The notes under the pieces were generated by a model that saw nothing but the letters and a program-made list of their open reading frames with translations, searched no databases and had not been told where the DNA came from. The translations under genes were made by a program, and so were the position numbers. From assembly GCA_964016885.1 (NCBI GenBank), contig OZ024760.1, forward strand, positions 23,684,001 to 23,748,000: a stretch of 64,000 nt of DNA, given 5' to 3'. Each line of letters opens with the position of its first letter. Positions within the stretch are counted from its first letter, which is position 1. Below are positions 49,539 through 63,789 of this stretch, in pieces. The DNA comes from Eledone cirrhosa. Lineage: Eukaryota.

Positions 49539-51864
49539 ACAATTAAGTCAAAGATGTACATCCATATATGTATACTGAAATACTAGTATGTATATGAATA
49601 CACACACGTATACATATGTAGATGTACCAAGTTTTTTTTCACTGATCACTTTACTGTGAGTGGCCAGCTATTCTGTATGTAAACACACAGACAAACCGGT
49701 TTTTAGAGTCAAACTGGTTTTTGAGGAAACACCTTTCCTCTATTCTCCAGAAAGCCAGACAAGGAATATTGAACTAGTTTCGTTGTTGTTACAACTCATC
49801 AGCAATATTTACCTATCTTCCGGCCTCTCTAGAGAATCGTAAAAGCACATATCGCTATATGCTTTTTCTATGAAAATTAGTAGTGGGCAGACCAACTTGC
49901 ATAGAGTGTGAGTAAGTACCGGTTCAACGGAGACGATAAAAACAAATAACGAAACGAAATTAAATTTCGTTTCGTTTGTAACTCACTTTTGTATGACTGA
50001 CGCTCAAACAATTAAGTCAAAGATGTACATCCATATATGTATACTAATTTTCATAGAAAAAGCATATAGCGATATGTGCTTTTACGATTCTCTAGAGAGG
50101 CCGGAAGATAGGTAAATATTGCTGATGAGTTGTAACAACAACGAAACTAGTTCAATATTCCTTGTCTGGCTTTCTGGAGAATAGAGGAAAGGTGTTTCCT
50201 CAAAAACCAGTATGACTCTAAAAACCGGTTTGTCTGTGTGTTTACATACAGAATAGCTGGCCACTCACAGTAAAGTGATCAGTGAAAAAAAACTTGGTAC
50301 ATCTACATATGTATACGTGTGTGTATTCATATACATACTAGTATTTCAGTATACATATATGGATGTACATCTTTGACTTAATTGTTTGAGCGTCAGTCAT
50401 ACAAAAGTGAGTTACAAACGAAACGAAATTTAATTTCGTTTCGTTATTTGTTTTTATCGTCTCCGTTGAACCGGTACTTACTCACACTCTATGCAAGTTG
50501 GTCTGCCCACTACTAATTTTCATAGAAAAAGCATATAGCGATATGTGCTTTTACGATTCTCTAGAGAGGCCGGAAGATAGGTAAATATTGCTGATGAGTT
50601 GTAACAACAACGAAACTAGTTCAATATTCCTTGTCTGGCTTTCTGGAGAATAGAGGAAAGGTGTTTCCTCAAAAACCAGTATGACTCTAAAAACCGGTTT
50701 GTCTGTGTGTTTACATACAGAATAGCTGGCCACTCACAGTAAAGTGATCAGTGAAAAAAAACTTGGTACATCTACATATGTATACGTGTGTGTATTCATA
50801 TACATACTAGTATTTCAGTATACATATATGGATGTACATCTTTGACTTAATTGTTTGAGCGTCAGTCATACAAAAGTGAGTTACAAACGAAACGAAATTT
50901 AATTTCGTTTCGTTATTTGTTTTTATCGTCTCCGTTGAACCGGTACCTACTCACACTCTATGCAAGTTGGTCTGCCCACTACTAATTTTCATAGAAAAAG
51001 CATATAGCGATATGTGCTTTTACGATTCTCTAGAGAGGCCGGAAGATAGGTAAATATTGCTGATGAGTTGTAACAACAACGAAACTAGTTTAATATTCCT
51101 TGTCTGGCTTTCTGGAGAATAGAGGAAAGGTGTTTCCTCAAAAACCAGTATGACTCTAAAAACCGGTTTGTCTGTGTGTTTACATACAGAATAGCTGGCC
51201 ACTCACAGTAAAGTGATCAGTGAAAAAAAACTTGGTACATCTACATATGTATACGTGTGTGTATTCATATACATACTAGTATTTCAGTATACATATATGG
51301 ATGTACATCTTTGACTTAATTGTTTGAGCGTCAGTCATACAAAAGTGAGTTACAAACGAAACGAAATTTAATTTCGTTTCGTTATTTGTTTTTATCGTCT
51401 CCGTTGAACCGGTACCTACTCACACTCTATGCAAGTTGGTCTGCCCACTACTAATTTTCATAGAAAAAGCATATAGCGATATGTGCTTTTACGATTCTCT
51501 AGAGAGGCCGGAAGATAGGTAAATATTGCTGATGAGTTGTAACAACAACGAAACTAGTTCAATATTCCTTGTCTGGCTTTCTGGAGAATAGAGGAAAGGT
51601 GTTTCCTCAAAAACCAGTATGACTCTAAAAACCGGTTTGTCTGTGTGTTTACATACAGAATAGCTGGCCACTCACAGTAAAGTGATCAGTGAAAAAAAAC
51701 TTGGTACATCTACATATGTATACGTGTGTGTATTCATATACATACTAGTATTTCAGTATACATATATGGATGTACATCTTTGACTTAATTGTTTGAGCGT
51801 CAGTCATACAAAAGTGAGTTACAAACGAAACGAAATTTAATTTCGTTTCGTTATTTGTTTTTAT
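49539..51864 (+). mobile_element. Hammerhead-bearing 469-bp tandem array (~3.9 units, 50045-51864) with inverted ~1.08 unit (49539-50044)
   Basis: Units start at 50045, 50514, 50983 and 51452 and differ by few SNPs; 13-bp TSD TATATATATACGA at 49526-49538 and 51862-51874. Confidence 0.95.
50115..50159 (+). ncRNA. Minimal type I hammerhead ribozyme (also at 50584, 51053, 51522 on plus; ~49765-49809 on minus)
   Basis: AATATTG-CTGATGA-GTTG taacaa CAAC-GAAAC-TA-GTT-CAATATT; complete core, palindromic stem III AACTAGTT. Confidence 0.92.
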
Positions 51865-51870
51865 ATATAT

Positions 51871-62300: not shown

Positions 62301-63789
62301 AGTTTCAAGCTTGTTAGCTATCATCAGCACCGTTTACCCATCTGCCAGATAGTTGAACGTTCGAAAGTATATACTTTCCTTATGAAAATTAACGGCTGAG
62401 CAGCCTAATTTGCATATAGAGTGAGTTAAATCGGTCAGGCATACCGAAAACGATAAGTTGAAAAAAATGAAAACGAAATTTCATTTCTCACTCTTAGTAT
62501 GGCACTTACTTAAATGTAAGTATGTATGTATACGTACATACATATATGTATACAGACGTACAGTAGCAAGCATATATATATATATATATATATATATATA
62601 TATATATATATATACATATATATACACATATGCATACAGGTACACATACATATATGCACGCATCAGTTTAGCCTACGTTTATTATAACGCCGGCCGCTTT
62701 GTTCGTTTGTTTGTTAACAAAGCGAACAGCCTGAATTTATGCCATACGGTGTTAAGGCAACCACGTCACCTTTTTGTTCAACACTGACACAGGAACGATG
62801 TACTAGTTTCAAGCTTGTTAGCTATCATCAGCACCGTTTACCCATCTGCCAGATAGTTGAACGTTCGAAAGTATATACTTTCCTTATGAAAATTAACGGC
62901 TGAGCAGCCTAATTTGCATATAGAGTGAGTTAAATCGGTCAGGCATACCGAAAACGATAAGTTGAAAAAAATGAAAACGAAATTTCATTTCTCACTCTTA
63001 GTATGGCACTTACTTAAATGTAAGTATGTATGTATACGTACATACATATATGTATACAGACGTACAGTAGCAAGCATATATATATATATATATATATATA
63101 TATATATATATATATACATATATATACACATATGCATACAGGTACACATACATATATGCACGCATCAGTTTAGCCTACGTTTATTATAACGCCGGCCGCT
63201 TTGTTCGTTTGTTTGTTAACAAAGCGAACAGCCTGAATTTATGCCATACGGTGTTAAGGCAACCACGTCACCTTTTTGTTCAACACTGACACAGGAACGA
63301 TGTACTAGTTTCAAGCTTGTTAGCTATCATCAGCACCGTTTACCCATCTGCCAGATAGTTGAACGTTCGAAAGTATATACTTTCCTTATGAAAATTATAA
63401 CACCGTATGGCATAAATTCAGGCTGTTCGCTTTGTTAACAAACAAACGAACAAAGCGGCCGGCGTTATAATAAACGTAGGCTAAACTGATGCGTGCATAT
63501 ATGTATGTGTACCTGTATGCATATGTGTATATATATGTATATATATATATATATATATATATATATATATATATATATATATGCTTGCTACTGTACGTCT
63601 GTATACATATATGTATGTACGTATACATACATACTTACATTTAAATATATATATATATCTATATATTATATTTATACATTTATATATACATATATATATA
63701 TATTTATATATGTATATATATATAATATATATATAATATATATATATATATAGATAGATAGAGAGAGAGGGGGGTATTGAAACATAGCC

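Follow-up and report, generated by a model that had tools for sequence, protein, structure and literature searches.

The window analyzed here, a stretch of 64,000 nucleotides from Eledone cirrhosa (contig OZ024760.1), carries two tandem arrays of non-coding repeat units, designated A and B, with one type I hammerhead per unit in both (Table 1). Array A (49538-51864) has a period of 469 bp and consists of an inverted arm followed by three full units and partial units; it contains five hammerheads, one on the inverted arm and four on the direct arm. Array B (58930-63647) has periods of 502-506 bp, eight full minus-strand units plus partials and nine hammerheads, and it closes with a 250-bp inverted arm. 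The B unit length is specific to each array. The 7 kb separating the arrays (51875-58920) is part of neither A nor B. The first-pass annotation of this DNA had described two hammerhead tandem arrays of one architecture without a real ORF, and omitted the inverted arm and the target-site duplication of each array. The common architecture was confirmed, as the same module order is present in A and B and the fold is shared; the longest ATG frame is at most 26 codons in A and 72 codons in B (antisense), so that the lack of a real ORF also stands. The units were said not to align over most of their length; A and B do align end to end, with gaps. The G+C content of the A unit is 168/469. No LTR-like framing was seen around the arrays at the mapped loci.

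Table 1. Features of insertions A and B in the window. Positions within a unit are counted from the predicted cut.
Feature	Coordinates	Strand	Remarks
Left target-site duplication of insertion A	49526..49538	+	13 bp, at the end of a (TA)n tract
A inverted arm	49538..50045	-	unit positions 196-469, then 1-234; terminates at the short site
Type I hammerhead, A inverted arm	49772..49809	-	5' stem I strand to cut site
Inner junction between the two A arms	50042..50045	.	microhomology of 4 nt
A direct arm	50042..51864	+	positions 359-469, three full 469-bp units, 1-305; terminates at the long site
Dyad hairpin common to A and B (one example)	50490..50524	+	contains the octamer-like word
Type I hammerhead, one of four on the A direct arm	50584..50621	+	predicted cut after GUU
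Remaining three hammerheads of the A direct arm	ends at 50152, 51090, 51559	+	
Right target-site duplication of insertion A	51862..51874	+	
Left target-site duplication of insertion B	58921..58932	+	12 bp
B long arm	58930..63397	-	positions 408-502, eight full 502-506 bp units, 1-346; terminates at the long site
Type I hammerhead of B, one of nine (last 63303-63340)	59279..59316	-	predicted cut after GUA
B inverted arm	63398..63647	+	positions 47-292; terminates at the short site; junction blunt
Right target-site duplication of insertion B	63642..63653	+	

Other small repeats are found near the arrays. A small two-armed inverted fragment with one tailed arm (51866-52260), whose left-end TA tract holds insertion A, looks like the truncated end of another family of the Penelope-like element (PLE) type. 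Four more short inverted-repeat fragments with (TA)n on their flanks (52710-52820, 54629-54882, 55328-55506 and 57499-57740) are read by eye as truncated PLE-type insertions likewise. Inverted copies of one repeat, 85-94% identical, lie about 9 kb apart at 48128-48721 and 57280-57784.

An Rfam search at gathering score gave no match in the window. Under that score, the HH9 model matched A with an E value of 2.5e-7 and B weakly (0.036). In both units helix I has 7 bp and a bulged extension, helix II has 4 bp and a UAACAA loop, and helix III consists of 2 bp around a palindromic CUAG. The cut triplet in A is GUU; B is without the G10.1-C11.1 pair and shows a U-U at the base of stem II. Definitions of the canonical metazoan hammerhead, which works as a dimer, and of the minimal PLE hammerhead are given in PMC4209133; the minimal hammerhead of PLE terminal repeats (pLTRs) has a helix II of 7-8 bp and a helix I of 4-5 bp. 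Because helices I and II of A and B, with the lengths and the conserved loop just described, fit the canonical type, the A/B hammerhead is by its sequence of the canonical metazoan/retrozyme type, and not the minimal one it had been called at first. In ten diverged copies the hammerhead structure scores above all slid controls. Two-sided changes between or within A and B in these copies were found at 3/9 pairs in stem I and 3/4 pairs in stem II; this covariation is modest evidence, because the changes mostly reflect the single A-versus-B split. Self-cleavage of A and B units is predicted from the core and the covariation.

The A and B monomers have the same branched fold plan with z of about -10, a value inflated by AU-rich hairpins, and 0 of 100 shuffles were as stable. 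Hairpin 1 was rejected as a common helix: A and B are misaligned there and the pairing is poor (71%). The dyad is conserved but two-sided changes are absent, and it may therefore be a DNA or protein-binding motif instead of an RNA helix. The promoter of newt satellite 2 is octamer-driven. A secondary account assigns it to the snRNA type, and the octamer-like word of A and B is only a lead, by analogy, to a promoter of this kind.

Genome searches indicate that A and B are members of a large family of non-coding hammerhead repeats that was active recently. In the 3.0-Gb genome, the unit A search gave 314 matches in 35 scored places (the 150 listed are all about 100% identical) and the unit B search 562 matches in 39 scored places. 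A motif common to A and B has 17,356 exact genome matches (control, 0). About 42 loci lie in the first 38.8 Mb of one contig, and extrapolation gives about 3,000 genome-wide. A arrays across many contigs are 99-100% identical. Dispersed copies with the same ends, as foreseen for such a family, were found genome-wide, including 40 unselected stretches around the first motif matches, where the arrays are mostly shorter and older; among the matches listed, no PLE ORF running on from a unit was found at these 40 stretches. The read graph of run X1 for A is very deep and branched. A wrap-around contig was discarded as a sign of an RNA circle and gives no evidence for one, because any tandem array yields such a contig. 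Near-identical A sequence was also seen in runs X4, X5 and X8 of other organisms, in low-depth contigs (5-17 each), which we guess to be cross-sample contamination.

The typical insertion has two sense arms pointing apart (head-to-head) from a junction and lies in (TA)n. The arm ends are fixed, in A at position 305 (long) and 231-235 (short), in B at 343-346 and about 288, leaving a tail of 55-74 nt. The inner ends are scattered across the unit, a few of them at position 1. The 35 top-scoring A loci comprise 27 two-armed insertions (24 long+short, three with an unclassed end) and eight single arms. Forty further A loci, picked by the short end only, gave 27 two-armed insertions, all long+short, and 11 single arms, two loci being cut by the sequence fetch; three of the 11 carry a tiny long-end stub and two others represent the P7 chimera described below. 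Overall, 54/75 A loci are two-armed, and the long+short pairing in 51/51 classifiable loci suggests that a single RNA molecule serves for both starts. Among 25 B loci, 15 are simple two-armed (12 long+short, one long+long, two unclassed), eight single and two complex. Target-site duplications are 10-13 bp long. Interrupted duplications were found at 17/42 loci against 192/1722 (11%) mismatched flank pairs (p 1.6e-6). By a strict cut 26/42 two-armed loci are TA-rich on both flanks, and most others lie in interrupted TA. Where the arms meet there is microhomology of 0-4 nt or a short patch, in many cases copied from the unit (10/42 junctions are without anchoring). Arms from the long site halted at the short site in 6/55 cases (p 0.011), an effect not upheld in the second sample alone (2/28, p 0.25).

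This anatomy resembles that of EN+ PLEs, for which a truncated copy in inverted orientation and a one-sided tail have been described (Craig et al. 2021, PMC8557442). The anole PLE protein PAc is reported to nick both strands, with two internal RNA starts that define the tail; it worked best on uncut RNA in vitro and cleavage was not needed (Frangieh et al. 2024, PMC11167929). A and B share with EN+ PLEs the inverted 5'-truncated arm, the tail at one end, the AT-rich or (TA)n target and the two internal starts; they differ in having no ORF, a tail of 55-74 nt versus 30-40, a canonical versus minimal hammerhead and arms of up to 17 identical units. Because the two fixed ends, the duplications and the inverted arm match EN+ PLE anatomy, it is very likely on sequence grounds that the arrays arrive by PLE-type target-primed reverse transcription, and we are highly confident that PLE-type insertion takes place as a multimer. 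The first-pass view of non-autonomous elements inserted as multimers with PLE marks is thus retained; its term replicon, in the sense of RNA-to-RNA replication, found no support.

A few loci are composite. In L045 and L058 the arms derive from two subfamilies, and L045 changes template inside one arm. At L066:2430-2832 a B array adjoins, with no TA spacer, a two-armed end fragment of the Neptune-type family of L094. At L057:3718-4500 a B arm stands head to head with another hammerhead-bearing repeat family, for which a coding partner was not found.

Variants were counted in 75 young A loci (238,777 bases), with 3/78 loci of other subfamilies left out and variants less than 8 nt from array ends ignored. 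The second A sample comprised 40 of the 43 new loci listed (12 further matches lie outside those listed), and two G167T arrays and L158 were targeted additions. Of the substitutions, 69 are confined to single units, 11 are shared by part of the units and 31 are present in all units that cover the site. The 31 fixed variant-locus pairs come from 20/75 loci; 29 are on both arms, at 18 loci with up to 33 units, and two are covered by one arm only. Only three arrays carry G167T; their full haplotypes differ from one another, and each is present in all units of its array (9, 14 and 33). C380G is found in one array only. T6C and C56T each occur in one multi-unit array and also in isolated units elsewhere, mostly of older subfamilies; one near-consensus array holds a single T6C unit. 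No second multi-unit array for T6C, C56T or C380G was found in the assembly, which gives one sequence per place and from which source arrays may be absent. An assembly artefact behind the fixed variants was rejected, since mis-polishing would draw units to the family majority and not to private haplotypes.

In rolling-circle cDNA, all-unit and single-unit changes separate RNA-borne from reverse transcriptase (RT) errors (PMC11331410). Single-unit changes in A occur at about 3 per 10,000, close to the range which that paper quotes for RT errors, and sequencing error may account for some of them and for some homopolymer indels. For a change to appear in every unit on both arms, a one-unit bottleneck is needed, and rolling-circle cDNA provides one. 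The template was probably a single-monomer RNA copied repeatedly, and the haplotypes lean towards a circular monomer rather than re-jumping on a linear one. Each of the 11 partly shared variants is confined to a subset of the units in its array, and several recur with period 2, so that duplication at the DNA level or copying from multimers also takes place.

The fixed changes are enriched in A>G on the RNA-sense strand: 8/22 distinct fixed versus 6/69 single-unit changes (p 0.004; p 0.008 without two targeted loci; p 0.044 among transitions). Compared with T>C, the distinct fixed changes stand at 8 to 4 (p 0.39); the comparison per locus gives p 0.019, with loci that are not independent. Three A>G changes are clustered in one hairpin at L170, and A5G, A121G and A344G recur on different backgrounds. 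The chances are about even that the A>G changes come from A-to-I editing of the template; recurrent patterns could also result from template switching, seen in L045.

Our preferred reading, with a probability of roughly 0.65, is that A and B are non-autonomous retrozymes inserting as ready two-armed arrays, with a PLE RT copying one probably circular monomer. It builds on features read from the DNA, namely fixed paired ends, duplications, junctions and array-wide haplotypes. We infer the cleavage, the circle and the enzyme as follows. An existing array would be transcribed, and paired hammerheads would excise unit-length RNA, ligation of which would give a circle. A PLE protein dimer would nick the two strands of a (TA)n target at positions offset by 10-13 bp. 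Each nick would prime cDNA synthesis from this one RNA, with the long internal start used at one nick and the short one at the other. The two cDNAs would circle the template for 0 to 17 turns, and their ends would then be joined via microhomology or a short templated patch.

Copying of long, uncut multimeric array transcripts by the PLE machinery, with hammerhead and circle outside the copying step, appears unlikely. PAc accepted uncleaved RNA in vitro and the mRNA proposed for it carries several copies (PMC11167929), the predicted hammerheads are weak and some arrays show period-2 and partial variant patterns; however, with uncut multimers a new mutation would remain in one unit and arrays could only shorten, the three G167T arrays differ in fixed haplotype, and a homogeneous source was not found for 3/4 variants searched. 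It is quite unlikely that the template is a linear self-cleaved monomer on which the RT jumps repeatedly from the 5' end to the 3' end. Cut-site joints in young arrays are without gained or lost bases, one haplotype extends on both arms over up to 33 units, and the form documented for coral, mussel and axolotl is the circle; the linear monomer does account equally well for the monomer bottleneck, and the few inner ends at position 1 and the template switches in L045 and L201 fit it. A satellite model, in which short PLE-end insertions grow later by unequal exchange and are homogenised by gene conversion, was proposed in bioRxiv 10.64898/2026.07.22.740005, and a 30-unit arm and partial variant sharing do exist. 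We consider it improbable for A and B: fixed variants extend across arms of opposite orientation and into the partial units at the ends, yet 69 single-unit changes have escaped homogenisation, arrays on many contigs are 99-100% identical, and the A>G excess lies on the RNA-sense strand. That the units are merely the pLTRs of an ORF-bearing PLE, the case which the first-pass annotation had set against its own, can practically be dismissed despite ends of PLE type, given that no PLE ORF continues from a unit at the mapped loci (at the 40 unselected stretches, among the matches listed), 35 GIY-YIG loci are without an A/B-like terminus and the hammerhead is not of the minimal pLTR type.

For the preferred copying of one monomer by a PLE RT, the genome offers numerous EN+ PLEs, with 10,595 GIY-YIG candidates, among them Neptune-type PLEs that encode RT and GIY-YIG domains and show two ends in (TA)n. 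Autonomous PLE tails in the genome are about 60 and 44 nt, with the same two ends in (TA)n. A comparison covering 150 of the 10,595 candidates by score and 35 loci by reading found no convincing likeness beyond shuffles between A or B and the 3' regions of eight autonomous PLE families including P7, and no A/B-like terminus at the 35 loci. A gave a weak score of 39 with one PLE 3' region (shuffle maximum, 33). An A insertion sits inside one PLE 3' region.

At L201 an A arm lies head to head with a nearly complete P7, the join showing microhomology of 5 nt and a 26-nt stretch of A in inverted orientation. L202 is a duplicate of L201, so the P7 chimera is one event, possibly produced by later deletion between neighbours. 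P7 (L201 minus strand 4552-8082) has a 1177-aa open frame with an asparagine-rich insert and a DKS motif; its fixed 3' ends number at least three. It is very young, with at least 99% identity in 40/40 scored copies. Pfam gave no match on P7; in a protein atlas it falls with RT/HTH_animal/GIY-YIG clusters at 0.96-0.97, a PLE-like profile. The P7 chimera pairs short with short, and two other chimeras pair long with long. P7 can be proposed only tentatively as the driver of A, and is a lead only, because of the single event and the short-with-short pairing. The Neptune-type 3' regions of L094 and L100 contain a fold resembling a hammerhead, with a 5' core that deviates from CUGANGA; it may be non-catalytic or a variant.

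Non-LTR retrozymes and their circles were reported in coral, mussel and axolotl by Cervera and de la Pena (2020, PMC7229834), with rolling reverse transcription and PLE mobilisation given as hypotheses. A and B resemble them as non-coding, low-GC (<50%) tandem units with one type I hammerhead and duplications of more than 4 bp. The A hammerhead is like axolotl HHR_Amex1 with its weak helix III and palindromic loop, and B is like HHR_Amex2, which has a U-U at the helix II base and still cleaves. The A and B units (469 and about 502 bp) exceed the 150-450 bp quoted in that paper. Inverted arms are unmentioned in its main text, where the word "inverted" has no match. In a preprint (Li, Clavereau, Pollet 2026, bioRxiv 10.64898/2026.07.22.740005), retrozymes are described as non-autonomous PLE derivatives. 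The case there is built on co-occurrence and on homology to pLTRs, chiefly in vertebrates, and its discussion leans towards local amplification. A and B belong to the same class, have a unit size inside its 51-972 bp and co-occur with EN+ PLEs; they differ in that no convincing pLTR homology was found here among eight PLE families, and insertion anatomy and haplotypes point to amplification during reverse transcription. Chlamys MRC1 (PMC8557442) is similar in having non-autonomous PLE partners and multicopy head-to-tail insertions, but these are in green algae, their 3' ends resemble autonomous families and the group is without canonical hammerheads.

Because non-LTR retrozymes and their proposed PLE origin are already published (PMC7229834; bioRxiv 10.64898/2026.07.22.740005), the retrozymes are a known class and A and B are not categorically new, so that the label "undescribed family" falls at class level. 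The new part is the insertion anatomy. The comparison literature also included PMC7761336, PMC13282606 and PMC2220036. Among literature titles and abstracts, no two-armed retrozyme insertions, array-fixed haplotypes or A/B families were found, and supplements or repeat databases may list such families; in an octopus repeat annotation paper the term "ribozyme" had no match in the text searched.

For the spread of animal retrozymes, circle rolling reverse transcription by a PLE was proposed in 2020 and local DNA amplification in 2026. A and B are young and numerous enough for insertion ends and haplotypes to discriminate the two proposals. They offer a short RNA, two mapped starts, a target and a candidate enzyme for an in vitro test, and their insertions bear on how PLEs form inverted arms and tails. 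A more speculative reading is that each insertion would be the read-out of one circle, copied from both target strands by a PLE enzyme dimer at two fixed starts, with A-to-I edits in every unit; we regard it as possible, an estimate made jointly with editing as a driver of heritable change. If this is true, RNA editing would drive heritable change in the A/B repeat family.
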